A stretch of DNA of 64,000 bases from Candidatus Microgenomatus auricola (GTDB taxonomy: Bacteria; Patescibacteriota; Patescibacteriia; SBBC01). Below the pieces are notes generated by a model that worked only from the letters and a program-made list of their open reading frames with translations, made no database searches and was not told the origin of the DNA. This document shows, in pieces, positions 1-57,772 of this stretch. Made by a program: the position numbers and the translations under genes. The stretch covers positions 36,759 to 100,758 of the forward strand of contig SBBC01000013.1 of NCBI GenBank assembly GCA_005239865.1, in the 5' to 3' direction. How positions within the stretch are numbered: position 1 is the first letter of the stretch; every line of letters starts with the position of its first letter.

Positions 1-2011
1 TCGTCAGCAATTTTTTCGAAGACTCGGCATTCAGCCGAAGGACGTGGTCATGGCGGAACAGGTGCACGGGCGGTGGGTTCGACGTGTCTCAGTGGGTGAC
101 CGTCGGGCGGGCTTCAGGCCTGACACTCGCTTGGCGAGAACCGACGGCCTGGTGACGACTGACCGCGGAATCATGTTGGCGGTCTTTGCGGCCGATTGCG
201 TGCCGGTCATGGCCGTTGATTTGCAACAGCGCGTGGTCGGGGTGGCCCACGCCGGGTGGCGCGGTATTCTGGCCGGGATCATTCCATCGTTCGTGCGTGA
301 ACTCCAACGCGCCGGCGCTAGTTCGCGCTCCCTCTTCCTGTGGCTCGGTCCAGCGGCGCATGCGTGTTGCTATGCGTTGCGACCGGCTGACGCGCCACGC
401 ACCCAAGACTTCATTCGCCGGTTCGGTCACACGAGTGTTCGCGTCGAAGGCAAGACCACCTATCTTGACCTCCCGCAAGCAATAGTGACCGACCTCATCA
501 AGGCGGGCGTACCGCGCCGACAGATTGACATTGATCCGGCCTGTACCATCCACGATTCCCGCGCCTGGCCGTCTCATCGCCGCCAAGGAAAAAAGCGGCA
601 ACACTCGCTCATGGGTATGATCGGTTTGCGCGACCCGCTCGATCATGTCAAAGGAAAGCACGTCCTGGTAATTGGTTTGGGACTCCATGGGGGAGGCGTG
701 GCCAGCATTCGCTGGCTCGTTCGACACGGTGCGCGCGTCACCGTGACGGATAAAAAAAACCGATCGGGACTCGCCACCTCTCTTCGCCAGCTCAGTGAGC
801 TGCCCGTGACCTATATTCTCGGACGTCACCGATCAAGCGACGTTCGGCAAGCTGATCTCGTTATAGCCAATCCGGGCGTCCCCCGGGAATCACCGTTGAT
901 CCAAACCGCTCTCCGCCTTCGGATTCCAGTCGAGAGCGACGCGGCAATTTTTTTTCGTCACTGTCGTTCACCAATCATCGGAGTGACCGGGACGAAGGGG
1001 AAAACCACCACGACGGTACTCATCGAAGCGATGTTGCGAGCCAACCATCGCCCCGTCGTTTCAGTTGGCCACAATCAAGTGCCCCTGCTGCATGTCCTTG
1101 ATCGACTTTCCGCGCGCCAGCTGGTGGTCGCTGAATTGTCCAGTTGGCGACTTGAGGGTTTAGCCGCTCGCGGCATGAGTCCCCACATCGCGGTGATCAC
1201 GAACATCATGCCAGATCATCTCAATCGCTATCGGAACTTCGCGGCGTACGTCCGGGCTAAACAAACGATCGTCAACTGGCAACGACATAATGACAACGCC
1301 GTGCTGAATCGCGACAATCCGGTGACGAGAACTATCGGTCAACGTGTCGTGGCGCGTCGGTGGTGGTTCTCCCGTCGGTATTTTCGCGGCGAAAACGGCG
1401 CTTTCATCCGTCACGACCAAGCCTACATCCGTGAGGATGGCCAAGAACACCAGTTGTTTCGATTGGCGGATGTTCGGCGGCCGGCCGGTCATGAAATATC
1501 CAATCTGCTGGCCGCCGCGGTGGTGGCGCGAATCTGCGGCGTAAAACTCCAAGCCATCCGCCGAATTGTCCGCACGTTTCAAGGCATTCCTCATCGCCTG
1601 GAGACGCTTGGTGCGGTTGACGGCGTCCGGTACATCAACGACTCAAGCGCCACTACGCCCGAAGCGGCGCTGGCCGGTCTCGAGAGCGTTACCGGCAACC
1701 TGATCCTGATCGCCGGTGGAACTGACAAACGACTCGATTACCGCGCCTTTGGCCAGACCATCAGTGCACGGTGCAAATCTGTCATTCTTTTTGACGGATC
1801 GGCCACCCGGAAACTCCTCCGACACGTCATCAATGTGCCGGTGACGGTCGTCCGCGACATGCACCAAGCAGTTCGATTGGCAAACCTGCTGGCTGACCGC
1901 GGAGACACCGTCCTACTTTCGCCAGGAGCCGCTAGTTTTGGTGTATTCCAGCACGAGTTCGATCGAGGCGATCAATTCCGGCAGGCTGTCACGGAGTTAC
2001 GACAAGCATGA
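1..2011 (+). CDS. murD: 5'-partial ORF fusing a PgeF/YfiH (DUF152) peptidoglycan-editing domain (approx. nt 1-610) in frame to MurD, UDP-N-acetylmuramoyl-L-alanine--D-glutamate ligase (approx. nt 611-2011).
   Basis: N-terminal part carries the DUF152 motifs 'EQVHG', 'DCVPV' and 'HAGWRG'. It is followed with no stop by the MurD NAD-like fold 'KHVLVIGLGLHGGG' and the Mur ligase P-loop 'GVTGTKGKTTT'. The frame is open back to nt 2, so the 5' end lies outside the window. Confidence 0.8.
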   Translation, partial: RQQFFRRLGIQPKDVVMAEQVHGRWVRRVSVGDRRAGFRPDTRLARTDGLVTTDRGIMLAVFAADCVPVMAVDLQQRVVGVAHAGWRGILAGIIPSFVRELQRAGASSRSLFLWLGPAAHACCYALRPADAPRTQDFIRRFGHTSVRVEGKTTYLDLPQAIVTDLIKAGVPRRQIDIDPACTIHDSRAWPSHRRQGKKRQHSLMGMIGLRDPLDHVKGKHVLVIGLGLHGGGVASIRWLVRHGARVTVTDKKNRSGLATSLRQLSELPVTYILGRHRSSDVRQADLVIANPGVPRESPLIQTALRLRIPVESDAAIFFRHCRSPIIGVTGTKGKTTTTVLIEAMLRANHRPVVSVGHNQVPLLHVLDRLSARQLVVAELSSWRLEGLAARGMSPHIAVITNIMPDHLNRYRNFAAYVRAKQTIVNWQRHNDNAVLNRDNPVTRTIGQRVVARRWWFSRRYFRGENGAFIRHDQAYIREDGQEHQLFRLADVRRPAGHEISNLLAAAVVARICGVKLQAIRRIVRTFQGIPHRLETLGAVDGVRYINDSSATTPEAALAGLESVTGNLILIAGGTDKRLDYRAFGQTISARCKSVILFDGSATRKLLRHVINVPVTVVRDMHQAVRLANLLADRGDTVLLSPGAASFGVFQHEFDRGDQFRQAVTELRQA

Positions 2012-3108
2012 ACGTTCATCGCGCCGATTCCATCTTTCTCCTGATTGTTTTTTCGCTCGTCGTCTTCGGTTTAATCGTTCTCTCTAGCGCCAGCACGGTG
2101 ATTGGCCATCAAGAGTTCGGTGACAGCGCGTATTTCTTGAAACGCCAATTCCTTAGCGTGCTGATCGGGGTGCTCCTCTTCGCCATCACCTACCGTCTCG
2201 ATTATCGTGTCTGGCGGAAGTTTGCGTTCCCGTTTCTCATCATTTCGATGGCGTTGCTGGTGGCGGTATTCGTTCCCGGTATCGGTTTGAAACTCCTCGG
2301 TGCTCAACGGTGGATCAACGTCGGACTCTTCACCTTTCAGCCAGCCGAAATTGTCAAACTGACCTTCCTCGTCTACTTGGCACGTTGGCTGGAGGATCGC
2401 GGTCGGGTAATGACTGATCGGGCCTACGGATTGTGGCCGTTTCTGCTCCTAGTTGGGGCTATTGCTTTTCTCGTGATGAAACAGCCGGACGTCGGAACGA
2501 TGGTGATTATTGGGATCATCGCCCTGTCGTCGTACTGGGTGGCCGGGGCGCCGTTCAAAGATATTGCGTTGATCCTTCTCTTAGCGGCCGGATTCTTTGC
2601 ACTCGTCGTCCAAACTGCCTCGTACCGGGCAGCTCGATTTCTCGTTTTTCTCAATCCGCAATACGATCCACAGGGCGTTGGCTACCACATCAACCAGGCG
2701 TTACTCGCGATCGGGTCGGGCGGGCTGTTCGGTCTCGGCCTCGGCCACTCACGACAAAAATTCAACTATTTACCCGAGGCGCAGGGCGACTCCATTTTTG
2801 CAGTGGTGGCCGAAGAGCTCGGGTTTTTCATTGTCCTCGCCCTCCTGGTGCTGTTTGTCGCGTTTATGCTTCGTGGCTACCGCATCGCTCGTCAGGCGCC
2901 GGACAGTTTCGGCAAGGTCTTGGCCGCCGGTATCACCACCTGGCTCGGTTTCCAGGCCCTGATCAACGTCGCTGCCTTGAGCGGGATAATCCCGCTGACC
3001 GGCGTTCCACTTCCATTTATTAGTTACGGCGGAACGGCCATGATGAGTTCGCTGGCCGCCGTCGGCATCCTGGCCAATATTTCCCGGGCCGGAAACTTAC
3101 GCCCATAA
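2008..3108 (+). CDS. ftsW: SEDS-family peptidoglycan glycosyltransferase (FtsW/RodA/SpoVE)
   Basis: About 10 predicted TM segments and conserved SEDS motifs ('PAEIVKL', 'DSIFAVVAEELG', 'PLPFISYGG'). Sits between murD and murG as in a dcw cluster. Confidence 0.85.
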   Translation: MNVHRADSIFLLIVFSLVVFGLIVLSSASTVIGHQEFGDSAYFLKRQFLSVLIGVLLFAITYRLDYRVWRKFAFPFLIISMALLVAVFVPGIGLKLLGAQRWINVGLFTFQPAEIVKLTFLVYLARWLEDRGRVMTDRAYGLWPFLLLVGAIAFLVMKQPDVGTMVIIGIIALSSYWVAGAPFKDIALILLLAAGFFALVVQTASYRAARFLVFLNPQYDPQGVGYHINQALLAIGSGGLFGLGLGHSRQKFNYLPEAQGDSIFAVVAEELGFFIVLALLVLFVAFMLRGYRIARQAPDSFGKVLAAGITTWLGFQALINVAALSGIIPLTGVPLPFISYGGTAMMSSLAAVGILANISRAGNLRP

Positions 3109-3111
3109 TCT

Positions 3112-5133
3112 ATGCGCGTTCTACTCGCTGGTGGGGGAACCGGTGGATCAGTCACACCACTGTTAGCCATTGCGGCTGAACTCCGTTCGTCGTTTCCGAG
3201 CGTCGAGTTTTTGTTCATCGGTGGGAAACGCGGGCCGGAACAATCGCTCGTGGCCGCAAAAAACATTCCGTTTGTCTCAATCACGGCTGGTAAGCTCCGT
3301 CGCTATTTCTCTTTTCAGAATGTGCTTGATCTCTTTCGTGTCGCAGTCGGTTTCCTGCAGACTTTTTTTCTCCTCGGAACATTTCGACCGGATGTTATCG
3401 TCAGCGTTGGAAGCTTCGTGGCAGTACCAGTGGTCTGGGCCGGCTGGGTCCGGGGGATCCCGTGTCTCATCCATCAGCAGGATATCAGGCCGGGTTTGTC
3501 AAACAAGCTCAGCGCTCCCTTTGCAACCAAGATCACCGTCTCTTTTGAGCAGTCGCTCCGCGATTTCCCGCCAAGCAAGAGCGTCTGGGTGGGAAATCCG
3601 ATTCGGTTAGAACTTCTCCGCGGCGACCGGGAGCGAGCGCGCACACGACTCGGCCTGCGTGACGATCTCCCGGTGGTCCTCGCCTTCGGCGGCGGCACCG
3701 GCGCGTTGCATCTCAATCAACTGGTGGCGGAAGCTGGACTCAATCTCGTTCGACGATGTCAAATCGTCCTGTTGACGGGCAGCCGTGAACACCGTTTTCA
3801 CGTGGAGCATCCAAATTTTCACACCTATGAATTCCTGACCGACGACATGGCCGACGCCTACGCCGTTGCCGATCTCGTGGTTTGCCGGGCCGGCTTGTCT
3901 ACCCTGTCGGAAATCGCCGCGCTCGGTAAGCCGGCGATCGTCGTGCCGCTCCCAGGGACGCACCAGGAAGAAAACGCCAAACACTTCGAACGTAATCAGG
4001 CCGCTGTCATCCTTCACGAAAAAAACCTGCGGCGGGAAATTCTTGAGCAGACCGTTCTCAATCTTCTATCCGACCACGACCGACGATCGACCCTCGGGCA
4101 CAACATCAAAAGACTTACCCGCCTCGATGCTGGCCAGCGATTAGTTAAAGAAATTGCCGAGATCGCCCACCAGCCGGAACTTCGCCGGATTGAACGTCAA
4201 TTGTCCGGTCGTGCGGAGCGGCTGCTGCGAAACGAACCCTTGTCGCGTCACACCAATTTTCGACTTGGTGGACCAGCCGATCTGTTCGTAGTCTGCCGTT
4301 CGCGTCGGTCAGTCATTGAAACGTTCCGCTATCTCCATCAGGCCGAGGTTCCGTACCTTATTCTTGGTGGCGGTGCCAATGTCGTCTGCGCTGATCGCGG
4401 CTATCGTGGCGTGGTCGTCCAAATCAAAAACCAGGAGTTTCTAGTTCACGGCCATGAAGTCGAGGTCGGCGCCGGCATGAATACCGGACAGGTAGCCAGC
4501 CGCTGTCTTCAGGCCGGTCTGGTCGGAATGGAATTTGTGGTCGGCATTTACGGAACGATTGGCGGCGCGCTCCGCGGCAATGCCGGATCCTTTGGGACCG
4601 AGATGAAAGACGTAGTCGTGTCGTGTCAAGTCGTTACTCCGTCGGGAGTGGTCGAGACCTGGACCAACCAACAATTGAAATTCGGGTATCGCCACAGCCT
4701 TTTGAAGACCGTCAGTGCCGCGGTCGTCACCGTACGCCTGCGACTCCGACCTGGCAATGTTCAACAAGCCCATCAAAAAATTGTCGAGTATGCAACGTAC
4801 AAGCGGACGCATCAGCCGCTGAAGTATCCAAGCGCCGGTTGCCTATTCAAGAATTACGAACTCGGGCCGGATGATCTTGAGTTGCGCCAACGGTTTGCCT
4901 CGGTCCTGAAAGATAATCGGATCCCGGCCTGGGCACTGATTGCCGAAGCTGGATGTGCTGGAATGCGGATTGGTGACATCCAGGTGAGCGACCAACACGC
5001 GAACTTTTTTCTTAATCTTGGACGCGGCCGATCTGATGACGTGATCATTTTAGCGAGTCTCGTCAAGCAGAAAGTCCGCGATCTCTTTGGCGTCCAGTTG
5101 CACGAAGAGGTCCAATTTTTGGGATTCCAGTAA
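3112..5133 (+). CDS. murG-murB: MurG (UDP-GlcNAc:lipid I transferase) fused in frame to MurB (UDP-N-acetylenolpyruvoylglucosamine reductase)
   Basis: N-terminal ~355 aa is MurG ('MRVLLAGGGTGGSVTPLLAIA', the C-terminal UDP-GlcNAc binding region 'GGGTGAL' and 'VCRAGLSTLSEIAALGKPAIVVP'). C-terminal ~315 aa is MurB (FAD-binding 'NFRLGGPADLFVV', 'LGGGANVV'). Domain junction near nt 4177. Confidence 0.8.
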   Translation: MRVLLAGGGTGGSVTPLLAIAAELRSSFPSVEFLFIGGKRGPEQSLVAAKNIPFVSITAGKLRRYFSFQNVLDLFRVAVGFLQTFFLLGTFRPDVIVSVGSFVAVPVVWAGWVRGIPCLIHQQDIRPGLSNKLSAPFATKITVSFEQSLRDFPPSKSVWVGNPIRLELLRGDRERARTRLGLRDDLPVVLAFGGGTGALHLNQLVAEAGLNLVRRCQIVLLTGSREHRFHVEHPNFHTYEFLTDDMADAYAVADLVVCRAGLSTLSEIAALGKPAIVVPLPGTHQEENAKHFERNQAAVILHEKNLRREILEQTVLNLLSDHDRRSTLGHNIKRLTRLDAGQRLVKEIAEIAHQPELRRIERQLSGRAERLLRNEPLSRHTNFRLGGPADLFVVCRSRRSVIETFRYLHQAEVPYLILGGGANVVCADRGYRGVVVQIKNQEFLVHGHEVEVGAGMNTGQVASRCLQAGLVGMEFVVGIYGTIGGALRGNAGSFGTEMKDVVVSCQVVTPSGVVETWTNQQLKFGYRHSLLKTVSAAVVTVRLRLRPGNVQQAHQKIVEYATYKRTHQPLKYPSAGCLFKNYELGPDDLELRQRFASVLKDNRIPAWALIAEAGCAGMRIGDIQVSDQHANFFLNLGRGRSDDVIILASLVKQKVRDLFGVQLHEEVQFLGFQ

Positions 5134-5144
5134 AGCCGAAGGGT

Positions 5145-5441
5145 ATGGATACGAGCGTCAGTGCAAAAAACTTTGTTCTCACGCCGAGCCTCAAGACTTT
5201 CGCCGAAGAAAAGATGGAGCGGCTGCGGCGCTATTCGCCGCGCATCATCCGTGCCCATGTCGAGTTGAGCATGAACCGGCATCACCTGCACGGTGATATT
5301 TTTGTGGCCTACGTCTGGTTGGAAATCCCCGGTCAAGACATCCATGCGACTGCCGAGGCTTCAGACATTCGCACGGCCATCGACGCGGTCTACCCGAAGC
5401 TTGAACGTCAGGTCCTTCGTGGCAAAGTACGCCATCGCTGA
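5145..5441 (+). CDS. hpf: Ribosome hibernation promoting factor / RaiA (short form)
   Basis: 98 aa. Matches the HPF pattern 'AKNFVLTPSLKTFAEEKMERL...' and 'AIDAVYPKLERQVLRGKVRHR' (cf. the 'DLYAAID...LERQLRKHK' pattern). Confidence 0.8.
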   Translation: MDTSVSAKNFVLTPSLKTFAEEKMERLRRYSPRIIRAHVELSMNRHHLHGDIFVAYVWLEIPGQDIHATAEASDIRTAIDAVYPKLERQVLRGKVRHR

Positions 5442-5523
5442 CCGTCGGCGGCAACGCTCGGCTTGTGCGCTTTGTCGTTTTATGACATGCTGCTTGCAGC
5501 CAGGAGATTTTTGACTTGCCGGT

Positions 5524-8247
5524 ATGTCGATTTTGAACAAACTTTTCGGCGATGCAAACGCACGCGTCGTTCGATCATACCAGCCGATGGTCGAGGCCAT
5601 CAACCGACTTGAGCACAACGTTTCCTCGCTCGGCGATGAAAACATCCGCCAACGGCTGCTCGAGCTACGGTCAATTGTTGACGGATCGTCGGCCAAACTC
5701 GATGACGTTCTGCCGGAGGTTTTTGCCATGACACGAGAAGCGTCGCGACGGGCGCTTCAGCTTCGACATTTTGACGTCCAGCTGATTGGCGGAATCGTCT
5801 TGCATCAAGGAAAAATTGCAGAAATGAAAACCGGCGAGGGAAAAACTTTGGTCGCGACCCTGCCCGTCGTTCTCAACGCCTTGACCGGCCAGGGAGTCCA
5901 CATCGTGACCGTCAACGATTACCTGGCCAAACGCGACGCCGGATGGATGGGACCGATCTACGCCCGACTTGGACTGACCTGTGCGGCTATCGTGCATGAG
6001 GCCTCATGGATTTTCGACGAGACGTTCACGAACGAACCGACGACCGATCCGTTGCTTAAGCATCTTCGCCCGATCAGCCGTCGTGAAGCGTACGCCGCTG
6101 ACATTACGTACGGCACGAACAATGAGTTCGGATTCGATTACCTGCGCGACAACATGGTCCCATCACCGGATCACCTCGGGCAGCGCCAACTTCACTACGC
6201 CATCGTTGACGAAGTTGATTCGATCCTGATTGACGAAGCGCGGACGCCGCTCATCATTTCGGCTCCGGTCGAACGTTCGGCCGATGACTATCGCAAAATT
6301 GACCAGCTCGTCAAACGACTGACGGCCGAGCGTGACTTCAAAATTGATGAGAAAATGCGCTCGGTTTTCCTGACCGAGGCTGGCATTACCAGCATGGAAC
6401 GGATGCTCGGTGTGCCGAACATCTATTCGGCCGCGGACAGCGACCTCTTGAACATCATCAATCAAGCGCTCCGCGCGAACTCCAACTTATTCGAGCGCGA
6501 CAAACAGTACGTTGTTCGGAATGGCGAAATCGTGATAGTTGACGAATTCACCGGCCGCTTAATGTTCGGACGAAGATACTCCGACGGTCTCCATCAGGCG
6601 ATTGAGGCCAAGGAAGGAGTCGAGATCAAGCAGGAAAGCCAAACCTTGGCCACGATTACCTTTCAGAATCTCTTTCGGATGTATGAAAAGCTGGCCGGGA
6701 TGACCGGAACGGCGGTGACTGAAGCCGAGGAATTTCACAAAATTTACCAACTCGACGTGGTGGTAATTCCGACCCATCAACCGATGATCCGGGTTGATTT
6801 CGAGGATTCGGTCTACAAAAACGAGCAGGGAAAGTTCACGGCCGTGGTGCGGGAAATCAAAAAGCGTCACGCTCAAGGACAACCTATTCTGGCCGGAACG
6901 ATTTCGATCGCCAAAAACGAACTCCTCTCCGCCCTCCTCCAACGCGAGGGCATTCGCCATGAAGTACTCAACGCGAAAAACCATGAACGGGAGGCCCAGA
7001 TCATCGCCCAGGCCGGTCGGCTAGGAGCGGTCACCATCGCCACGAACATGGCCGGTCGCGGCGTAGACATCATTCTTGGCGGCAACCCACCCAATCCTCA
7101 AGAACATGCGGCCGTGAAAGAACGCGGCGGTCTTCACGTCATTGGGACGGAACGACACGAGGCCCGACGCATTGATTTGCAGCTGCGTGGCCGATCCGGG
7201 CGACAGGGCGATCCGGGCTCCTCGCAATTCTTCGTTTCGATGGAAGACGACTTGATGCGGATCTTCGGCAGTGATCGAATGAAAAATCTCATGGATCGCC
7301 TCGGGATTCCCGATGACATGCCGATTGAGAATAGAATGGTCAGCAAATCGATTGAAGCCGCGCAGAAGAAAGTTGAGGGTCACAACTTCGATATTCGAAA
7401 ACATCTCGTCGAATACGACGACGTCATGAACAAACATCGCGAGGTGATCTACCGGAAGCGAAAGGAAATTCTTCTGGCCGAACCGGTCCGGCTGCGAGAG
7501 ATGGCAAATAAGATGATTGAACAGGAACTCGAAACGCTCGTTGTCTTTCACACCACCGAAGAAAGCCCGGAGCAGTGGAAACTCGATAAAGTCTACGATT
7601 CGGTCAACGCCATTTTCGCTCTGCGATCAGACGAACGGAAACTCCTGCCGGAGCTCGTCAGCCAGTCAGGGAGCGTTCCGCCGGCGTCGTCGTTCCGTCA
7701 CGATCTAACAACGTATCTGGTCGAATTGGCGACCGTCAAATTTTCTACTTTGCTGGCAGCTTCGGCCGAGCCTGATCAGGCCCTCCACATCGTCCGGAGC
7801 ATCATGCTGCGAACAATTGATGTGATGTGGATTGAACATCTGGATTTAATGGAACATTTGCGGGAGGGAATTGGTCTGCGTGGGTACGGACAACGCGATC
7901 CACTCATCGAATACAAGCGCGAGGCGTATCAACTTTTCACCCAACTTCTGAATTCAATTAATGAGCAGACCGCGATTGCGATTTTTAAACTCGAACACGC
8001 TCACACACCGGAACAAACGCCGATGGCGCGTCGGAAATTGATCGAATCAGCACCGGCCAAAACCATGGCTGACGAGCTGGCGCATCCGGTTACCGTGTCC
8101 GGCGTTCCGTCACATGCCCAACCCACCTCGCCGAAAGCGACGTTCCGGAAGGTCGGAAGAAACGACCCGTGTCCATGTGGCTCTGGAAAAAAATTCAAAA
8201 AATGCTACCTAGCCAATGATCCGGGCTGCAAATTACGGACTCAGTAG
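5524..8247 (+). CDS. secA: Preprotein translocase ATPase SecA
   Basis: 907 aa. Has the DEAD motor (Walker A 'MKTGEGKT'), SecA motifs throughout, and the C-terminal zinc-binding tail 'CPCGSGKKFKKC'. Confidence 0.95.
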   Translation: MSILNKLFGDANARVVRSYQPMVEAINRLEHNVSSLGDENIRQRLLELRSIVDGSSAKLDDVLPEVFAMTREASRRALQLRHFDVQLIGGIVLHQGKIAEMKTGEGKTLVATLPVVLNALTGQGVHIVTVNDYLAKRDAGWMGPIYARLGLTCAAIVHEASWIFDETFTNEPTTDPLLKHLRPISRREAYAADITYGTNNEFGFDYLRDNMVPSPDHLGQRQLHYAIVDEVDSILIDEARTPLIISAPVERSADDYRKIDQLVKRLTAERDFKIDEKMRSVFLTEAGITSMERMLGVPNIYSAADSDLLNIINQALRANSNLFERDKQYVVRNGEIVIVDEFTGRLMFGRRYSDGLHQAIEAKEGVEIKQESQTLATITFQNLFRMYEKLAGMTGTAVTEAEEFHKIYQLDVVVIPTHQPMIRVDFEDSVYKNEQGKFTAVVREIKKRHAQGQPILAGTISIAKNELLSALLQREGIRHEVLNAKNHEREAQIIAQAGRLGAVTIATNMAGRGVDIILGGNPPNPQEHAAVKERGGLHVIGTERHEARRIDLQLRGRSGRQGDPGSSQFFVSMEDDLMRIFGSDRMKNLMDRLGIPDDMPIENRMVSKSIEAAQKKVEGHNFDIRKHLVEYDDVMNKHREVIYRKRKEILLAEPVRLREMANKMIEQELETLVVFHTTEESPEQWKLDKVYDSVNAIFALRSDERKLLPELVSQSGSVPPASSFRHDLTTYLVELATVKFSTLLAASAEPDQALHIVRSIMLRTIDVMWIEHLDLMEHLREGIGLRGYGQRDPLIEYKREAYQLFTQLLNSINEQTAIAIFKLEHAHTPEQTPMARRKLIESAPAKTMADELAHPVTVSGVPSHAQPTSPKATFRKVGRNDPCPCGSGKKFKKCYLANDPGCKLRTQ

Positions 8248-9899: not shown

Positions 9900-11546
9900 A
9901 TGCGAAAAAACCCCTGGTTGAGCTTAGCGCTAATTCTCGTTCTGACCGTCGTCGTCGGTACGATCGATTACCCCCGTGGTCCTGATCTTCGAATCGGTCG
10001 CTATTTTAAAGAACTGAAAGTTCACCTGGGATTGGACCTCCAGGGCGGGACGCGTCTGATTTACGACGCTGATACCTCCACCATCCCGGAGCGAGACCGT
10101 GAAGACGCGCTCCAGGGCGTGCGTGACGTGGTTGAACGTCGCGTCAACGCCTTTGGCGTTTCCGAGCCGGTGGTCCAGACTAACCGTGTCGGTAGCCAGT
10201 GGCGGGTGTCAGTTGAGTTGGCCGGCGTGCGCGATATCAACGAAGCCATTCGCTTGATCGGGGAAACGCCATTTCTCGAATTCCGGGAAGAAACGCCACC
10301 AGTTCAACTTCGCACTGACGAGGAAGCCAAGGCCCGCGCTCAAGACGTCTTGCAGAAGATCGGTGCTCCCAACGCGGATTTTGCCGCTTTGGCAAAGGAA
10401 TTTTCCGACGACCCCGGATCGAAAGATCTAGGCGGCGATTTGGGCTTTGCTCGCCGCGGTCAATTCGTCAACGAATTTGAAGTCGCTCTCTTTGACGAAT
10501 TGCAAGACGGTGAGATTGTCAACCAGCCGATCAAAACGCAATTCGGCTACCACCTCATCAAACGGATTGAATCGCGAGCAATCGACGATGGGAGTGGAAA
10601 TCAGACAGCGGAAGTTCATGGCCAGCACATTCTCGTCGCCACCACCCAGCCACCGCCTGAAGGTAACTTTACCCCGACTAAACTGTCTGGAAAAAACCTC
10701 CGCCATGCAACTGTCCAGTTCGATCCAAATACCGGCGAACCGGAAGTCGGACTCCAATTTGATGACGAGGGAACGCAGCTCTTCGCCGACATCACCAAAC
10801 GGAACGTCGGAAAAAGCGTGGCCATTTACCTCGACGGTAGTCCGATCTCGATCCCCGTTGTCCAGCAGGAAATTACGGCTGGCACGGCCGTCATCACCGG
10901 TAACTTCTCACTGGCGGAAGCGAAGGTTTTAGCTCGGCGTCTCAATGCCGGCGCTTTACCCGTACCGATTATGCTCGTCAATCAGCAGACTGTCGGACCG
11001 AGCTTAGGAAAGGAATCGGTAGCGCGGAGTGTCTTCGCTGGCCTGGTTGGGATCTTGGCGGTGGCTGCCTTTATGGTGGCCTACTATCGTCTTCCCGGAC
11101 TCTTGGCGACCTTCGCCTTGGGACTGTATGCGCTCATCGTGTTGGCAGTTTTCAAGCTCTGGCCAATTACCTTGACGCTAGCTGGGGTGGCTGGATTTAT
11201 TCTTTCAATTGGCATGGCGGTTGACGCGAACGTTCTCATCTTCGAACGCTTTCGTGAAGAACTTCGGAGCGGACGCCCACTCCAGAGTGCGCTGGACGAA
11301 GGATTCCGGCGGGCCTGGCTCTCGATTCGCGATTCAAACGTCTCGACGCTCATCACCGCTCTTATTCTGGCCTGGTTCGGAACAAGTATTATCAAGGGTT
11401 TTGCCATCACGCTAGCCATTGGCATCATCGTCAGCATGTTTACTGCCATTTCCGTCTCGCGGACTCTCTTACGGGTGGTCGGAACGCAGTGGCTCGACCG
11501 TCGCCGAGGATTAATCGGCGCAAACATTCCGCCGGCATCATCCTAA
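9900..11546 (+). CDS. secD: Protein-export membrane protein SecD with a parvulin-type PPIase domain inserted in the periplasmic P1 region
   Basis: SecD start 'LGLDLQGG', P1 head and 6 C-terminal TM segments. Residues ~131-255 carry parvulin motifs ('GGDLGFARRGQFVNEFEVALF', 'GEIVNQPIKTQFGYHLIK'). Confidence 0.85.
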   Translation: MRKNPWLSLALILVLTVVVGTIDYPRGPDLRIGRYFKELKVHLGLDLQGGTRLIYDADTSTIPERDREDALQGVRDVVERRVNAFGVSEPVVQTNRVGSQWRVSVELAGVRDINEAIRLIGETPFLEFREETPPVQLRTDEEAKARAQDVLQKIGAPNADFAALAKEFSDDPGSKDLGGDLGFARRGQFVNEFEVALFDELQDGEIVNQPIKTQFGYHLIKRIESRAIDDGSGNQTAEVHGQHILVATTQPPPEGNFTPTKLSGKNLRHATVQFDPNTGEPEVGLQFDDEGTQLFADITKRNVGKSVAIYLDGSPISIPVVQQEITAGTAVITGNFSLAEAKVLARRLNAGALPVPIMLVNQQTVGPSLGKESVARSVFAGLVGILAVAAFMVAYYRLPGLLATFALGLYALIVLAVFKLWPITLTLAGVAGFILSIGMAVDANVLIFERFREELRSGRPLQSALDEGFRRAWLSIRDSNVSTLITALILAWFGTSIIKGFAITLAIGIIVSMFTAISVSRTLLRVVGTQWLDRRRGLIGANIPPASS

Positions 11547-24963: not shown

Positions 24964-26430
24964 ATGAAAAACGACGAGCGCGTCGTGCGTGGTCAGGCGC
25001 GGATCCTGACGAATACGACGTATCTGCTGGCCGCGTCAATTATCCAAAAGTTCATCTCTTTTGGCTACTTCATTTACTACGCCCGGACGATTGGACCGAA
25101 GAGCGTCGGTTTGTTCGAACCGATTCGTTCGGTCATCCCGATCGCGCTGGTCATCATCGACTTTGCGCTGTCCGTTGTTCTAACCAGGGAAATCGCGCGC
25201 AACCAGGAAAAGGCCAAGCACTATCTGAATACCGTCCTGTCGCTGAAACTCCTGTTCGCGGTGGCGACGCTACTCATCACCTTCGCCGTCACGGCTTTTA
25301 CGAATTTTGATCAGCCGACACGAACCCTCCTCTTCATCGCCGGGATGATCGTCGCCTTTGACATGTTCACGATGACCTACGCTGCGACCCTGCGCGGGAT
25401 CCAGATTTTTCGATATGAAGCGATTGGTATCATCCTGACGCAGCTCACGACCGTCCTGGTTGGTGTGATCGCGCTCAACTTAAAACTTGGGCTGCCAGCG
25501 CTGATGATTGCACTTCTCGGCGGCAGCGTTGTGAACTTCTTCTTTCTCCTTCGGATGGTGCGTCGACGGCTCGGCGCCTTCCCGAAACTCGCCTGGGACG
25601 CTGAACTGGTCAAAAGGTTTCTACTGATCGCGGTGCCGATCCTCGGGGCGCAACTGATTGCTCGACTTTTCACTTATGCCGATCGCTATCTCTTGCTGTC
25701 GCTGGCCGACAAAACGACCACGGGCATTTACCTGGCGGCTCACCGTATTCCGTTTGCACTCGAATTTATTCCGGCCGCCTTTGCCGCGAGTTTACTTCCG
25801 GCGATGAGTAATTACTTTCTGCATTCCCGCGAACAACTGGCTCGCGCTTTTCACCAAGCCTTCCGCTACCTCATCCTCTTAAGCGTCCCGCTGGTCGTCG
25901 GCATTTTCGTTCTGGCACAACCTTTCGTCATCAAACTCTTGAAACAGGCGTATAGTGATTCAATCACACCACTACGGATTATGATCATCGCCCTGCCGCT
26001 CATTTTTTTGAATTTCCCGGCCGGACATTTTCTGATCGCCACGAACCGTCAGATCTGGAACACGATCAACATGGGCTTGGCGGTGGTCACGAACATCGTT
26101 CTGAATCTGGCGCTCATTCCTCGGCTCGGTGCCAACGGCGCCGCCCTTTCGGTGGTGGTGAGCTACGTCATGCTTTTCACCCTCAACATGATTCAAGTCC
26201 GCCGAGTGATGCCACTTCGGTCGCGCGACCTCATCGCCGTGATCATTCAATCGCTGGCGGCGGCCGCCATCATGGGGGTGGCGATCGGTTTTCTCCAACG
26301 GATGTTTTCCCCTTATTTCCTCATTCTTCCTGGCGCCGTCATATATGTCGCCGCACTCTTCATCCTCGGTACGGTGAAATTCAGTGACGTCCGGCTTTTG
26401 CTCGAGGCGCTGGGAAGAAAAACGTCCTGA
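24964..26430 (+). CDS. MOP-superfamily oligosaccharide flippase (Wzx/polysaccharide biosynthesis protein)
   Basis: 488 aa with about 14 TM segments. Polysaccharide biosynthesis protein topology. Confidence 0.7.
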   Translation: MKNDERVVRGQARILTNTTYLLAASIIQKFISFGYFIYYARTIGPKSVGLFEPIRSVIPIALVIIDFALSVVLTREIARNQEKAKHYLNTVLSLKLLFAVATLLITFAVTAFTNFDQPTRTLLFIAGMIVAFDMFTMTYAATLRGIQIFRYEAIGIILTQLTTVLVGVIALNLKLGLPALMIALLGGSVVNFFFLLRMVRRRLGAFPKLAWDAELVKRFLLIAVPILGAQLIARLFTYADRYLLLSLADKTTTGIYLAAHRIPFALEFIPAAFAASLLPAMSNYFLHSREQLARAFHQAFRYLILLSVPLVVGIFVLAQPFVIKLLKQAYSDSITPLRIMIIALPLIFLNFPAGHFLIATNRQIWNTINMGLAVVTNIVLNLALIPRLGANGAALSVVVSYVMLFTLNMIQVRRVMPLRSRDLIAVIIQSLAAAAIMGVAIGFLQRMFSPYFLILPGAVIYVAALFILGTVKFSDVRLLLEALGRKTS

Positions 26431-28226
26431 TGCACCGCACCTTGCTCATCACGCACTTCTTTCCACCGCAGGTGGGCGGGGCAGAGCGCTATTGTGAAGT
26501 CCTGGCGCGACGACTACCGGCTTCTGATCTGGTTGTCGTTGCATCGCCGACGGTCGGTGATCATGATTTTGACCGTACCCTGCCGGTCCCAGTCATCCGG
26601 AAGAACTTCCTTAAACCAGGCTTGCTCCAACCAAGCTGGCTTTTGACGTTGTCGTGGCTGGTCCGGACGATCAAACAGGAAAGGGTCACACGCGTCGTCT
26701 TTGGACATTATGCCGGCTTCGTCACCCTCGGTCTCCTTGTAAAACTCGTCCTCGGCATTCCGTTCGTCATCTCGGTCTTCGGCTTGGATTTCATCGCTTA
26801 CCGACGGTCGTTTTGGCGTCGTCTCCTACTCCGCTGGAACCTCCGCGCAGCGGAATGGGTCATCACGATCAGCTCGTACACCGCCGGTCTCCTCCGTAAC
26901 TTCGGGGTGCCGCAGGGCAAAATGCTCATCGCCGCGCCCGGCACTGATCCGCATGAACCGCCGGATCAACAATCAATTGAGCGTTTCCGGAGTACTTACG
27001 GACTAGGGCAGTCAACCATCCTCTTGACTGTTGGCCGCCTCGTCCAGCGCAAGGGCCACGCCCGCGTCCTGCACGCACTGCCGGCTGTCATCCAGACATT
27101 ACCGGATCTACGCTATGTGATGGTTGGCGATGGACCGGAACTGACCAATCTCGAACGCCTGGTCCGTGAGCTCAACCTCCAGCACCATGTCACATTTCTT
27201 GGCCAACTCTCTGATCACGACGTCCGCCTGGCCTTCCACGCCAGCCACGCCTTCATCATGCTCCCCAGCACTAGCCAAAAAGATGCCGAGGGATTCGGCA
27301 TCGTCTACATCGAGGCATTGATCGCGAAGAAGCCGATTATCGCTACGCGAAGTGGGGGAGTGGTCGATATTATTCGCGACGGCGAAAATGGGGTGGCTTT
27401 GAATGAAGACGCTTCCGCTCGTGATATCGCGCAGGCGATCGTTTCCCTGATGCGCAACCGGCCCCGGATGCAGGCCCTTGGGCAGCAGGGATTCGCCTTC
27501 GTGCAAAAACATTTCTCGCTTGACCAACAGGTCGCTCCGTTCCGCCGCGTTCTGGCAACCCCGCCGCGCGAGGCCGGGCATGTTCCGACCGTCAGCATCA
27601 TCATTCCGGTCTGGAATTCGAGCGACACCGTGGCCCGGACCCTCCAAAGCGTGGCCGTGCAAACCTATAAAGACCTGGAGGTCATACTCGTCGATGATGG
27701 TTCAACTGACAACCCAGCGATCATCGCCCAGCGCTTTCCTAAAGTCCGTCTCATTCGACAAGACCACCGCGGGGCAGCGATCGCGCGTAACCACGGATTT
27801 CGGGAAAGCCGTGGACGGTATGTTCTCTTTTGCGACGCCGACGTCATTCTTCACCCGCGCATGCTCGAACGGATGGTCACGACGCTCGATCTCAAGCCGG
27901 AGGCGGCGTACGCGTATGCGAGCTTCCGCTTTGGCTGGCGGACTTTCGACCTCTTCGATTTTGATCGGAAGCGACTACAGCACGCGAATTACATTAGCAC
28001 GATGTCCATGATCCGACGGGAAGCGTTTCCTGGTTTTGACGAGACACTCCCGCGACTTCAGGATTGGGACCTCTGGCTGACCATGCTCGAACAGGGGAAA
28101 ACCGGCACCTGGGTGCCAGCCCGGTTGTTTAGCGCCTCCGTCGCCAAGCGTGGCATCAGCCAACGCATCAGCGTTCCGCCGCTCGACGTGGTTAACCGCA
28201 TCCGACAAAAACACCGCCTGGCATAG
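26430..28226 (+). CDS. Bifunctional glycosyltransferase: GT4 (GT-B) N-terminal domain fused to a GT2 (GT-A) C-terminal domain
   Basis: GT4 motif 'RSGGVVDIIRDGENGVAL'. GT2 start 'VSIIIPVWNSSDTVARTLQSVAVQTYKDLEVILVDDGSTD' and the DAD/'CDADV' motif. Confidence 0.75.
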   Translation: MHRTLLITHFFPPQVGGAERYCEVLARRLPASDLVVVASPTVGDHDFDRTLPVPVIRKNFLKPGLLQPSWLLTLSWLVRTIKQERVTRVVFGHYAGFVTLGLLVKLVLGIPFVISVFGLDFIAYRRSFWRRLLLRWNLRAAEWVITISSYTAGLLRNFGVPQGKMLIAAPGTDPHEPPDQQSIERFRSTYGLGQSTILLTVGRLVQRKGHARVLHALPAVIQTLPDLRYVMVGDGPELTNLERLVRELNLQHHVTFLGQLSDHDVRLAFHASHAFIMLPSTSQKDAEGFGIVYIEALIAKKPIIATRSGGVVDIIRDGENGVALNEDASARDIAQAIVSLMRNRPRMQALGQQGFAFVQKHFSLDQQVAPFRRVLATPPREAGHVPTVSIIIPVWNSSDTVARTLQSVAVQTYKDLEVILVDDGSTDNPAIIAQRFPKVRLIRQDHRGAAIARNHGFRESRGRYVLFCDADVILHPRMLERMVTTLDLKPEAAYAYASFRFGWRTFDLFDFDRKRLQHANYISTMSMIRREAFPGFDETLPRLQDWDLWLTMLEQGKTGTWVPARLFSASVAKRGISQRISVPPLDVVNRIRQKHRLA

Positions 28227-28274
28227 CCGCGTACCAATGCCGGTGGTTGCCCCACATCCCAGCTGCAGCATTCT

Positions 28275-28814
28275 CTACCTCAAGAGTCGAGCAAACTTCT
28301 TCCTGAATTTCGCCAGCTTCGGACCAATCACCGCCTGACAGTACGGCTGTTCCGGGTTCTTCGCGAAAAAGTCCTGATGCTCGTTCTCAGCCGGATAGAA
28401 GTTCTTGAGCGGCACAATCGCCGTCACCACCGGCTCGTCAAAAATTTGTTTGCGCTCAATCCGCTGCCTGACCGCTTCTGCAATCCTCCGCTGGTGTTCA
28501 TCGTGATAGAAAATCACCGACCGGTACTGTTCGCCAATGTCGTTTCCTTGACGATTCATTTGCGTCGGGTCGTGCGTCAAGAAAAAGACTTCCACCAGTT
28601 GTTGATACGTAATCACCGCCGGATTGAACCTGATCTGGACGGCTTCAGCATGTCCGGTGGCGTGACTGCAAACCTGTTCATAGGTCGGATTCGGCATCCG
28701 ACCGCCGCTATATCCGGATGTCACACGCTCAACGCCGCGCAATTGTTTGAAAAGTGCTTCGGTGCACCAAAAACACCCGGCGCCGAATGTAGCAAGTTCT
28801 GAAGTCGCGACCAT
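28275..28814 (-). CDS. msrA: Peptide methionine sulfoxide reductase MsrA
   Basis: Catalytic 'GAGCFWCTEALF' motif. Start taken at the internal Met 'MVATSELATF' rather than the long ORF-track start at 28910. Confidence 0.85.
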   Translation of the reverse strand: MVATSELATFGAGCFWCTEALFKQLRGVERVTSGYSGGRMPNPTYEQVCSHATGHAEAVQIRFNPAVITYQQLVEVFFLTHDPTQMNRQGNDIGEQYRSVIFYHDEHQRRIAEAVRQRIERKQIFDEPVVTAIVPLKNFYPAENEHQDFFAKNPEQPYCQAVIGPKLAKFRKKFARLLR

Positions 28815-28820
28815 AAAAAC

Positions 28821-28829
28821 AGTATACCA
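28821..28829 (-). promoter_or_regulatory. Extended -10 (TGG-TATACT) lying 6 nt upstream of the msrA ATG; a leaderless-transcript candidate
   Basis: The reverse complement reads tggtatact-gttttt-ATG. Confidence 0.4.
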
Positions 28830-28929
28830 CGTCAGTAGCGAGCGTTTTACGTAATTTGAAAATGAGCCGGACGCAGACCATGCTGTACTCTGTCTCCACC
28901 TGACGCTCAACCCCGCCGCGACGAAAAGG

Positions 28930-28959
28930 TTGACAGGTCTTGAGGCCCTGACGTAGGAT
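28930..28959 (+). promoter_or_regulatory. Promoter TTGACA-N18-TAGGAT
   Basis: Lies in the divergent msrA/small-ORF intergenic region. Confidence 0.45.
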
Positions 28960-29018
28960 GAAGCCGCTCAATTGTCGGTCGCGTTCATTCTCGTTCCTAA
29001 AAGGAGGGTGATCAGGAA

Positions 29019-29288
29019 ATGCCGCAGCGCCAACTACCACAGCTACCGGTGGGAACACGCGTCCGGCTGGCCGAAACCCGTCGCTGGGGCGAGATCGCTC
29101 CCTGGCCAGAGGGCCTGCCAGAAGTCGTCAAAGCACTTCAGAAAACCCATGTCTGTGTCCGTCCTGACGTCCGAGACGCGGGCGAGGAACTCCTTCAGTA
29201 CTGGCCAAAAAACAAACTGTTGCAGGCGGGAGAGTCAGAACCTCCGAGCGATCCACCGCGCTTCTCGGCTACACCGGAGCAAGCGTAG
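29019..29288 (+). CDS. Small hypothetical protein (89 aa)
   Basis: Strong SD 'aaaggaggg' 9 nt before the ATG. Has its own promoter upstream and a terminator-like hairpin downstream. No recognisable domain. Confidence 0.5.
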   Translation: MPQRQLPQLPVGTRVRLAETRRWGEIAPWPEGLPEVVKALQKTHVCVRPDVRDAGEELLQYWPKNKLLQAGESEPPSDPPRFSATPEQA

Positions 29289-29330
29289 CACGTGGCCACC
29301 GACGAAAAGGCGACCACGTTTTATTGTTTG
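29289..29330 (+). terminator. Terminator-like hairpin (acgtgg...ccacgt) followed by TTTTATTGTTTG
   Basis: The imperfect stem plus T-rich tract sits immediately after the small-ORF stop. Confidence 0.4.
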
Positions 29331-29504
29331 ACTGCTATCAAACCAACAAAGAAAGCTCGCTTTAACCCCCTAGGACACGGGGACGGAGCCGTTTTTTATT
29401 TGACCTTGCGAATTTTCCGTAGAAACGCTACACTTGGTGAGGTCCATGATCCAGAAAATTTTTCTCCCAGTGTTGACCGACTGTGAGGATGGTTGAATTT
29501 CAAC

Positions 29505-30377
29505 ATGCCGCCACCGACCATGACTGCCATTATCGTCAGTTACAATGCCAGCCCGGAACTCCGACGATGCCTCCGGAGCGCGGCGACCTCGCGCGGCGTT
29601 TCCCTCAAGATCGTTGTCGTCGACAATGCCTCTACCGACGACAACGTCAATATGATCCGAGACGAGTTCCCTCAAGTTGACCTGATCGTCAATATGACCA
29701 ACCGCGGGTTTGCGGCCGCTGTAAATCAAGGACTGACGCGGGCGACGGGCAATATTGTCCTCCTCAACCCCGACCTTGAGCTCGAACCGGATACCCTGAC
29801 GGCGCTCGAAGCCGCATTGAAACGCCACCCACACGTCGGGATCGTCGGACCAGCGCTCAAGTACCCTGACGGCTCGCTCCAGCCCTCGGTCAAAAAATTT
29901 CCGCGCTGGATAGACCTCCTCCTCATCTTGACGAAGCTGCCGAACCTCTGGCCCGGTTTAGCGCGCTCATACAACGGCCTTGACGTTGACTATAAACGGG
30001 AACAGGTCGTTGATCAGGTCATGGGATCGTGCTTCATGATTCGACAATCCTGCCTGGACGACGTCGGGAAGTTTGACGAAGGTTTTTACATCTGGTTTGA
30101 GGAGGTTGATTTCTGTAAACGAGCCAGAGACCGGGGCTGGTCAACGCTTTTCACCCCGTCAGCGCGGGCGCGGCACAGCCGCGGAGCGAGCTTCAGGCAA
30201 TTACCGGCCAGGAGGAGACAGCGCATCCTGCGCCGGAGCGTGGTACATTACTGCCGAAAACATTTTGGATGGTTGGTCACATGGCTACTGCTTCCTGGTC
30301 TGTTCGTCAGTTGGCTTTCCGCCCTCATGATTGATGCCTTCCGGCTGGCCAAACCGCAACGGGCAAAAAATTTCTAA
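29505..30377 (+). CDS. GT2-family glycosyltransferase
   Basis: 'MTAIIVSYNASPELRRCLRS...VVVDNASTDD' GT-A fold start. The ATG at 29505 is preferred over the TTG at 29493. Confidence 0.75.
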   Translation: MPPPTMTAIIVSYNASPELRRCLRSAATSRGVSLKIVVVDNASTDDNVNMIRDEFPQVDLIVNMTNRGFAAAVNQGLTRATGNIVLLNPDLELEPDTLTALEAALKRHPHVGIVGPALKYPDGSLQPSVKKFPRWIDLLLILTKLPNLWPGLARSYNGLDVDYKREQVVDQVMGSCFMIRQSCLDDVGKFDEGFYIWFEEVDFCKRARDRGWSTLFTPSARARHSRGASFRQLPARRRQRILRRSVVHYCRKHFGWLVTWLLLPGLFVSWLSALMIDAFRLAKPQRAKNF

Positions 30378-30379
30378 GC

Positions 30380-31333
30380 ATGCCCCATCCATCGTACCGT
30401 TGCCCTAACTGCCACGCCCAGCTGCCTGACGCGAACCAGGCCACGCTGGCCTGCTCGCATTGCCAGGAAAGATACGTAATCCTTCATGGGATTCCCCAAT
30501 TCATCGCCAGGAGATTTCTCGACCCCTTCAAACAGACCGAGCAACATTTCCACGACGAACTGTCGTGCGCGGCCACCGCTGCCGGCGTGGCGGCACGCGA
30601 TTCAACTTTCCATCTCCACTTCAAGCAGCCGATGATGAATCTGTCGCCGGGCTCGACCGTTCTCGAAGTGGCCGGCGGAACGCGCGCCGATGGCATTGAG
30701 ATCGCCCTGGCCGGTCAATTCGTCACCATGCTCGATCTGGCACCGCAAGCAGTCGAGCGTGCGCGTCAGCTTGCTCAAGACGCTGGCGTCAGAGAGCGAA
30801 TGCGATTCTGCGTGGCTGACAGTGAACATCTTCCGTTTGCCGATCGAAGTTTCGATGCCACCTTTGTGGCCGCGTCGTTTCATCACTTTCCAAACCAGCT
30901 GGCTGCGCTCCAAGAGATGAAACGGGTGACCAAACCTGGCGGGTATGTCATCTGGGGGGTTGAACCGGCGGCCTGGCCGTATACAACGGTGTTCAAGATT
31001 CTCGGTCCGCTCAAACGCTTCATCCGCCGCCGACGAATCCGGGCCTTCAATTCCATCGCCGACGATACGACCAGCGGCTTCACGAAATCGCAGATCAAGG
31101 AGTTGTTTAACCGCGCCGGACTCCAGGTCCAAACCATCAAACCGGTAAAATTCCTCACGGAATTCTATGATTCTTGCGTGCGGATGCTCGGGAAACTCGC
31201 CCGACGCAACTTCGTGCCAATCGCAAGTATTGATCACCACTTAAGCAAAGTTGACGCATTGCTTGAACGCCTGCCACTCGTCACCAAACTCTATTGGCAC
31301 TGGAACGTCATTAGCCGGGTCCCTCGAGCATGA
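30380..31333 (+). CDS. Trm112-like zinc-ribbon domain fused to a class I SAM-dependent methyltransferase
   Basis: 'CPNCHAQL...CSHCQERYVILHGIPQF' zinc ribbon. Methyltransferase motif I 'VLEVAGGTRADGIEIA' and motif 'VAASFHHF'. Confidence 0.65.
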   Translation: MPHPSYRCPNCHAQLPDANQATLACSHCQERYVILHGIPQFIARRFLDPFKQTEQHFHDELSCAATAAGVAARDSTFHLHFKQPMMNLSPGSTVLEVAGGTRADGIEIALAGQFVTMLDLAPQAVERARQLAQDAGVRERMRFCVADSEHLPFADRSFDATFVAASFHHFPNQLAALQEMKRVTKPGGYVIWGVEPAAWPYTTVFKILGPLKRFIRRRRIRAFNSIADDTTSGFTKSQIKELFNRAGLQVQTIKPVKFLTEFYDSCVRMLGKLARRNFVPIASIDHHLSKVDALLERLPLVTKLYWHWNVISRVPRA

Positions 31334-33806: not shown

Positions 33807-33809
33807 ACC

Positions 33810-36528: not shown

Positions 36529-36535
36529 TGTCGCC

Positions 36536-37543: not shown

Positions 37544-37547
37544 AGGC

Positions 37548-57719: not shown

Positions 57720-57772
57720 GCGACAAGAAGAGTATAGCACAAAGAAGCCGAGGATTTCAAGCGCCCTGACGA

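Follow-up and report, generated by a model that had tools for sequence, protein, structure and literature searches.

MurC is known to mis-ligate L-Ser and Gly, and several bacterial homologues of the peptidoglycan editing factor PgeF (YfiH/DUF152) remove Ser or Gly, not Ala, from uridine diphosphate-N-acetylmuramic acid (UDP-MurNAc) precursors, the monopeptide being the preferred substrate (PMC12280929). The E. coli enzyme, YfiH, is ~1000-fold better on UDP-MurNAc-monopeptides than on dipeptides (274,084 nmol/min/mg on UMS versus 89 nmol/min/mg on UMSE) and works with a Cys107-His124-Asp89 catalytic triad, plus His71; Gln69 hydrogen-bonds the Ser hydroxyl, Trp127/Arg128 and Arg228 contact UDP, Tyr227 contacts MurNAc, and Arg235 contacts the amino-acid carboxylate (PMC8844914). 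Whether PgeF works with MurC or with MurD was explicitly asked in a 2025 study, in which fusions are unmentioned (PMC12280929). A 2023 survey of natural Mur chimeras described MurE-MurF, MurC-Ddl, MurC-MurB, MurG-MurC, MurD-FtsW, and MraY-MurG proteins, with unidentified species left out (PMC10214165). Here, we describe a gene at the start of a 64,000-nucleotide (nt) stretch of DNA from Candidatus Microgenomatus auricola (GenBank assembly GCA_005239865.1, contig SBBC01000013.1, positions 36,759 to 100,758; hereafter, the window) in which a PgeF domain is fused in frame to MurD. Judging from its sequence, and with a probability of about 0.7, we take the product to be a bifunctional peptidoglycan-precursor enzyme, composed of a PgeF-type editing amidase and a normal MurD, that originated by loss of a stop codon. 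Neither PgeF-MurD nor MurG-MurB, which also occurs in the window, is among the chimera types in PMC10214165, where YfiH and laccase are likewise unmentioned, and full-text literature searches found no published description of a PgeF-MurD chimera. As far as we found, then, this is a new and apparently undescribed type of Mur chimera, and the first known to join a proofreading hydrolase to a ligase.

The window opens inside an uninterrupted plus-strand frame of 669 codons (nt 2-2008) that ends with TGA at 2009-2011. The frame is already open at the first position. The initial annotation had placed its 5' end beyond the window, and comparison with P0001, a 712-amino-acid (aa) protein from a 119-kb contig of an NCBI assembly, bore this out: the window translation is identical to residues 44-712, with 43 N-terminal residues missing. 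The upstream 43 residues were taken from the P0001 protein record only. Pfam domains in the window translation are, in order, PF02578 (aa 1-198), MurD-like_N (219-310), Mur_ligase_M (328-509), and Mur_ligase_C (531-641). All five motifs on which the initial annotation had based its proposal (EQVHG, DCVPV, HAGWRG, KHVLVIGLGLHGGG, and GVTGTKGKTTT) were found in the translation, and the three Mur domains, together with the unbroken frame between them and PF02578, agree with its description of a complete MurD half with no intervening stop. The proposed in-frame fusion is thus confirmed as a full-length gene, and, as described below, it is kept in divergent relatives. Since the frame contains no stop of any kind, we also rejected an alternative genetic code.

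The window copy of the PgeF domain, although truncated, matches PF02578 with 160.9 bits (cut-off 22.9; E = 4.5e-47), the match running from position 32 to 229 of the 238 in the profile, and phmmer matched it to YfiH/YlmD chains in the PDB at E values of 1e-28 to 1e-11. Its alignment with the solved chains 6dzd, 6t0y, and 1t8h extends as far as their last residues; in 6dzd, the penultimate residue (278 of 279) is paired with residue 254 of P0001. When the protein was compared with the E. coli K-12 sequence, using the residue roles given in PMC8844914, nine of ten listed YfiH positions (Q69, H71, D89, C107, H124, W127, R128, R228, and R235) were identical, and the tenth, Tyr227, was replaced by His235. 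The equivalents of the triad and His71 (C109, H126, D91, and H65) are invariant in 17 of the 17 fusions that we collected.

The MurD half scored 382.1 bits with the NCBIfam murD equivalog TIGR01087 (cut-off 211.95), the next-best Mur ligase model being murC (124.6 bits against a cut-off of 335.1). Residues were compared using the literature numbering of E. coli MurD catalytic residues, checked against the E. coli K-12 sequence. Equivalents of K115, E157, H183, K198, R302, T321, K348, and S415 are present in every fusion, and in the window protein all ten catalytic residues, including Asn271 and Asp317, are identical to those of E. coli. Exceptions among the fusions are confined to D317, which is Ser or Asn in one group of relatives (g3, defined below), and N271, where P0004 and P0006 have Asp. 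In the N-terminal domain, the equivalents of E. coli Leu15, Asp35, and Gly73 are retained; Leu416 is replaced by Phe and Phe422 by Glu, the latter as in unfused Patescibacteria MurDs. Taken together, both halves of the protein look active.

At the junction, the natural C-terminal tail of PgeF runs directly into the natural N-terminal tail of MurD, with no stop and no added linker, and alignment to E. coli K-12 MurD puts the equivalent of its Met1 at approximately residue 256. The junction aligns in all fusions (...PSHRR(x5)R...IGLRDPLDxLKGKxVLVxGLG...). Neither a conserved Met nor a conserved start-type codon was found at this point across the aligned fusions, and the production of free MurD from an internal start was rejected as unlikely on that account. 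An AlphaFold2 model of the 712-residue chain, made from 143 aligned sequences of which ten were fusions, had a mean predicted local distance difference test score (pLDDT) of 95.2 and a predicted template modeling score (pTM) of 0.92. Junction residues 241-262, situated between the last strand of PgeF (244-252) and the first strand of MurD (263-267), had pLDDT values of 92-94, and such a high pTM for a four-domain chain suggests that the modeled domains are held in a defined arrangement. In a Foldseek comparison with the PDB, only the MurD half was matched, best by closed, ligand-bound E. coli MurD (1UAG, 2UAG, and 4UAG; target template modeling (TM) score 0.90-0.91, query TM 0.56, root-mean-square deviation 2.7-2.8 Å), and no PDB chain with the PgeF-MurD architecture was found.

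The initial annotation had called for a search for similar fusions in related genomes, and 16 more were found. In all, the 17 fusions are 33-100% identical and originate in independent assemblies (NCBI, ENA, JGI, and Logan); they include P0001-P0010, P0241 (the open reading frame (ORF) of L004), the L003 ORF, P0246, P0247, P0268, and P0293. A search of 5.8 billion proteins gave nine full-length fusions of 644-713 aa (P0002-P0010; 45-64% identical); each has the four Pfam domains, and their source assemblies are from Logan, ENA, JGI, and NCBI. In an exhaustive HMMER search, 1.84 billion cluster representatives yielded five more: P0241 (714 aa), P0246 (701 aa), P0247 (699 aa), P0268 (695 aa), and P0293 (702 aa), which are 33-43% identical and whose domains were confirmed by Pfam. 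Finally, a scan of GTDB species genomes showed the fusion in two groundwater metagenome-assembled genomes (MAGs) of Candidatus Kerfeldbacteria, L003 and L004, with frames of 731 and 727 codons, respectively, unbroken across the junction; the L003 gene encodes 714 aa from its first ATG, and the L004 product is P0241. The fusion is rare, with at least about a dozen 90%-identity clusters, nearly all of them singletons; this count is a lower bound, as the profile search with 15 fusions scored the 8000 best word-sharing candidates and missed both group g3 and P0293. Thus, the fusion is real and conserved, and its hosts are a small set of uncultured, Kerfeldbacteria-like Patescibacteria from groundwater and soil.

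All fusion loci with enough flanking sequence share the order pilMN-T2SSF-T2SSE-PMT_2-mraY-[pgeF::murD]-ftsW-murG...hpf-secA, a synteny of Patescibacteria type. Besides the window, ftsW neighbors the fusion in L001-L004, L083, L087, and L088, and the ATGA overlap between the two genes in the window indicates an operon with translational coupling. Two unfused arrangements are informative. In L005, a low-GC MAG labelled Saccharibacteria, mraY is followed by pgeF (270 aa), a TAA stop, 12 nt, and murD (459 aa) in the same frame, and this adjacent state explains how the fusion arose: the stop and the 12-nt spacer between neighboring, same-frame pgeF and murD genes would have been lost in a Patescibacteria ancestor. 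In the Levybacteria MAG L035 (4538-8817), the genes run murE-like-pgeF-murC-murB-murA, and their stop and start codons overlap. Neighbor-joining (NJ) trees resolved four groups of fusions: g1 (the window clade, ten sequences), g2 (Kerfeldbacteria), g3 (P0246, P0247, and P0268), and P0293. In the NJ point tree of the PgeF domain, all 17 fusions and the murD-adjacent pgeF of L005 formed one clade, in which g1 and g2 were monophyletic in 27 of 30 bootstraps and deeper grouping was weakly supported; in the NJ tree of the MurD domain, the fusion groups were not sisters. The junction string GLRDPL(D/E)xLKGK shared by g1 and g2 suggests that these two groups descend from one fusion event. No murC was found within the 64-kb window; a lineage lacking MurC was nonetheless rejected, as murC is present in the operon that carries the fusion in the relative L088.

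How, then, might the two activities work together? The N-terminal Cys-His-Asp amidase would most likely hydrolyze the erroneous products of MurC, UDP-MurNAc-L-Ser and UDP-MurNAc-Gly, to UDP-MurNAc, while the three C-terminal domains would act as MurD, adding D-Glu to UDP-MurNAc-L-Ala. Since addition of D-Glu lowers the activity of YfiH ~1000-fold, editing must precede MurD; the two activities would therefore compete for the same ligand, and editing would have to win a kinetic race. A fusion would set a 1:1 stoichiometry and co-localize the editing site with the UDP-binding, substrate-entry domain of MurD, such that wrong monopeptides could be destroyed where MurD would otherwise lock them in. 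Such a coupling of proofreading with elongation, as proposed in the initial annotation, fits the published enzymology; the substrate specificity of the domain, like any kinetic or physical advantage of the fusion, is inferred. Coupling would account most economically for a fusion that has no linker and is kept across lineages diverged to 33-50% identity. A stronger version, in which PgeF packs rigidly on the MurD N-domain and each UDP-MurNAc-aminoacyl species is sampled in the editing site before D-Glu ligation, is tentative and, in our judgment, rather doubtful. If true, the protein would be a 'cis-editing ligase', comparable to aminoacyl-tRNA synthetases with editing domains, with the editor mounted on the downstream consumer; it would provide the first evidence of peptidoglycan proofreading physically integrated into the Mur assembly line, and it would imply that elsewhere a transient PgeF-MurD (or PgeF-MurC) encounter has been missed by pulldowns.

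Several observations weigh against an editing enzyme coupled to MurD. With the NCBIfam PgeF equivalog TIGR00726 (cut-off 141.15), P0001 scored 135.5 bits, i.e., 5.6 under the cut-off, and P0004 was also under it (139.9), while P0268 passed (143.6). The PgeF domain is divergent, being at most 41% identical to any stand-alone homologue among the 120 closest, all of which are 198-316 aa long. At the position of Gln69, eight fused relatives (P0003-P0010) have Leu, whereas the window protein has Gln, as do group g3, the fusions of Kerfeldbacteria, and unfused homologues. In E. coli, Q69A/M/T variants lose the ~10-fold preference for Ser over Ala (PMC8844914), and the Gln-to-Leu change may accordingly mark an altered editing specificity in this sub-clade. 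In vivo pulldown in E. coli showed no association of PgeF with MurC or MurD (PMC12280929), and coupling is therefore not a general requirement. Lastly, the nearest unfused MurDs (L085 and L084) lie in the order mraY-murD-ftsW, in loci without pgeF. The narrow miss of the PgeF equivalog cut-off also accounts for the annotation of GenBank MBI4090104.1 (P0241), the only fusion with a GenBank name: it is labelled as MurD only, and the editing domain is consequently invisible in that record.

Among the alternatives, the one that survives best is a neutral fusion, in which both activities are canonical and the stop between two neighboring genes, already coupled in translation, was lost in a streamlined genome without any advantage from coupling. 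The unfused precursor differs only by TAA and 12 nt, in frame, so that a single event suffices. The same operon holds a MurG::MurB chimera of non-consecutive steps, published Mur chimeras include non-sequential pairs (PMC10214165), and unrelated domains (alpha/beta-hydrolase, GrpB, and lactonase-like) are fused to Patescibacteria MurD. Close relatives, moreover, manage without a PgeF domain at the locus. However, the fusion has been kept across 33-50% identity with a conserved, linker-less junction that is predicted by the model to be rigid, and its partner, MurD, is one of the two enzymes that share the PgeF ligand; in Levybacteria, pgeF adjoins the gene for the other, murC. We consider neutrality unlikely, if well short of negligible.

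Considerably less probable is that the N-terminal domain is something other than a position-1 editor, i.e., a weak purine nucleoside phosphorylase or deaminase, as reported for the family, a broader UDP-MurNAc-peptide amidase involved in flux or recycling, or a non-catalytic binding module. E. coli YfiH is still named purine nucleoside phosphorylase in RefSeq and the PDB, and vertebrate members of the family have no editing activity (PMC12280929); the score just under the PgeF equivalog cut-off and the Leu of P0003-P0010 could be read in the same way. Nevertheless, the same study describes the phosphorylase activity as weak and without physiological relevance in bacteria, the window protein conserves the triad and residues that contact UDP, MurNAc, and the carboxylate, and the gene lies within a mur operon, fused to an enzyme that binds UDP-MurNAc-L-Ala. 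On this evidence, a non-editing role seems less likely than the editing amidase that we favor.

The weakest alternative, to which we give practically no credence, is that an error of sequencing or assembly near nt 600, either an indel or a chimeric join, merged two genes: an A6 run at nt 588-593, just upstream of the junction, and the metagenome-type assembly behind the window could have produced one, but the indel that the initial annotation had suspected is excluded because 16 independently assembled proteins, from different projects and assemblers, keep the frame across the aligned junction with homology on both sides of it, and because the window frame has no stop under any genetic code, so that a frameshift or two separate genes do not apply to the window lineage.

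The features of the fusion locus are collected in Table 1.

Table 1. Coordinates of the fusion gene, its domains, and related features (window numbering, except for the last row)
Feature	Position (nt)	Strand	Evidence and remarks
PgeF/YfiH-like domain (PF02578, DUF152, Cu-oxidase_4)	2..634	+	Pfam; residues 44-254 of the 712-aa protein
PgeF key codons Q63, H65, D91, C109, H126	59-61, 65-67, 143-145, 197-199, 248-250		Positions verified
PgeF key codons W129/R130, R236, R242	257-262, 578-580, 596-598		Positions verified
Fusion junction	629..658	+	Residues 253-262 (RDPLDHVKGK)
MurD N-terminal domain (UDP-binding, Rossmann-like)	656..931	+	Pfam PF21799, E 2.9e-13
Mur ligase central ATP-binding domain	983..1528	+	Pfam PF08245, E 5.1e-27
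P-loop GTKGKTT, Lys377	1001-1003		Lys377 codon; equals E. coli Lys115
Mur ligase C-terminal domain (D-Glu-binding)	1592..1924	+	Pfam PF02875, E 2.5e-13
ftsW	2008..3108	+	Pfam PF01098, E 7.5e-104; ATG overlaps the fusion TGA (ATGA)
MurG::MurB chimera (673 aa)	3112..5133	+	Pfam GT28 N and C, FAD_binding_4, MurB_C
Unfused pgeF-murD arrangement	3469-5673		L005

The MurG::MurB chimera downstream of ftsW passes both the murG and the murB equivalogs of NCBIfam and is kept in L001-L004. Since relatives L085 and L088 have separate murG-murC-murB genes, murC has been removed from between murG and murB. Other MurD chimeras were seen among Patescibacteria-like MurDs (P0249, P0406, P0346, P0284, and P0353). 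Their types comprise an alpha/beta-hydrolase (S33-like)-MurD of ~714 aa, with the hydrolase at the same N-terminal position as PgeF, a glutamate racemase (MurI)-MurD of 761 aa, a GrpB-MurD, and a MurD-lactonase-like protein; the hydrolase-MurD could be analogous to the PgeF fusion without being homologous to it.

Elsewhere in the window, SecD (9900-11546, plus strand) carries a PPIC-type peptidyl-prolyl isomerase (Rotamase) domain; this insertion, at ~aa 136-225, separates the P1 N-terminal subdomain from the P1 head subdomain. The peptidoglycan and rod-shape machinery is rich for a Patescibacteria-type genome (8387-9853, 36536-37543, 42583-46878, 51576-52676, and, on the minus strand, 56373-57740) and includes an L,D-transpeptidase with FG-GAP repeats, two MreB paralogues, MreC, a PBP2-type transpeptidase, alanine racemase, and an M23 peptidase. 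Glycosyltransferase, Wzy, and flippase genes form a large cluster at ~24964-38735. ARAGORN found no tRNA gene in the 64-kb window, and on both strands over the same length all Rfam families stayed below their gathering scores, which leaves neither an rRNA nor a tRNA as a taxonomic marker.

Only in 2022-2025 did PgeF become established as a conserved amidase that proofreads peptidoglycan, and in databases it is still listed as a purine nucleoside phosphorylase. The fusion provides independent genomic evidence, of the Rosetta-stone type, that the physiological context of the PgeF family is the hand-off from MurC to MurD, and it thereby bears on the question, already posed, of where PgeF acts. 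It also adds a quality-control enzyme to the partners known from Mur chimeras and offers a ready-made construct with which fused and split forms can be compared for an effect of proximity on error rejection.

Compared with stand-alone PgeF/YfiH/YlmD proteins (E. coli P33644, with PDB entries 1Z9T, 7F3V, and 7W1G; Geobacillus/Bacillus 1T8H, 6T0Y, and 6DZD), the N-terminal half belongs to the same fold family, covers the whole domain, and has in common with them the equivalents of the triad, His71, Gln69, Trp127, Arg128, Arg228, and Arg235. Like many Gram-positive ylmD genes, it sits in a cluster of cell-wall and division genes. It differs from them in being covalently joined to MurD, in the replacement of Tyr227 by His, and in having a sub-clade with Leu in place of Gln69. 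Compared with E. coli MurD, the C-terminal half shares the three domains, the P-loop Lys, Glu157, His183, the carbamylatable Lys198, Arg302, Asp317, Thr321, Lys348, and Ser415, and it differs in being preceded by a second enzyme, an N-terminal extension of 255 residues, and in the replacement of Lys319 and Phe422, as in other Patescibacteria MurDs.

Natural Mur chimeras, such as the MurE-MurF of Bordetella pertussis, offer a close architectural parallel: there, as here, adjacent genes of the dcw/mur cluster are joined head to tail with no linker, the partner is encoded in that cluster, and the fusion recurs in several species, as seen in the 17 fusions, the adjacency of pgeF and murD in L005, and the constant mraY-X-ftsW position. 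The domains of natural Mur chimeras stay catalytically independent (PMC10214165). The partner in the present case, however, is an editing hydrolase and not a biosynthetic step. For that aspect, a comparison can be made with the cis-editing domain of alanyl-tRNA synthetase and the free AlaXp proteins, an analogy drawn by the authors of the PgeF work (PMC12280929) that is functional only, with no homology. In both systems, an ATP-dependent enzyme that adds Ala takes Ser and Gly in its place, the wrong residue is removed by hydrolysis, and the editing modules occur free as well as fused. Unlike alanyl-tRNA synthetase, in which the editor is fused to the enzyme that makes the error, the chimera described here carries its editor not on MurC, the error-maker, but on the next enzyme, MurD.

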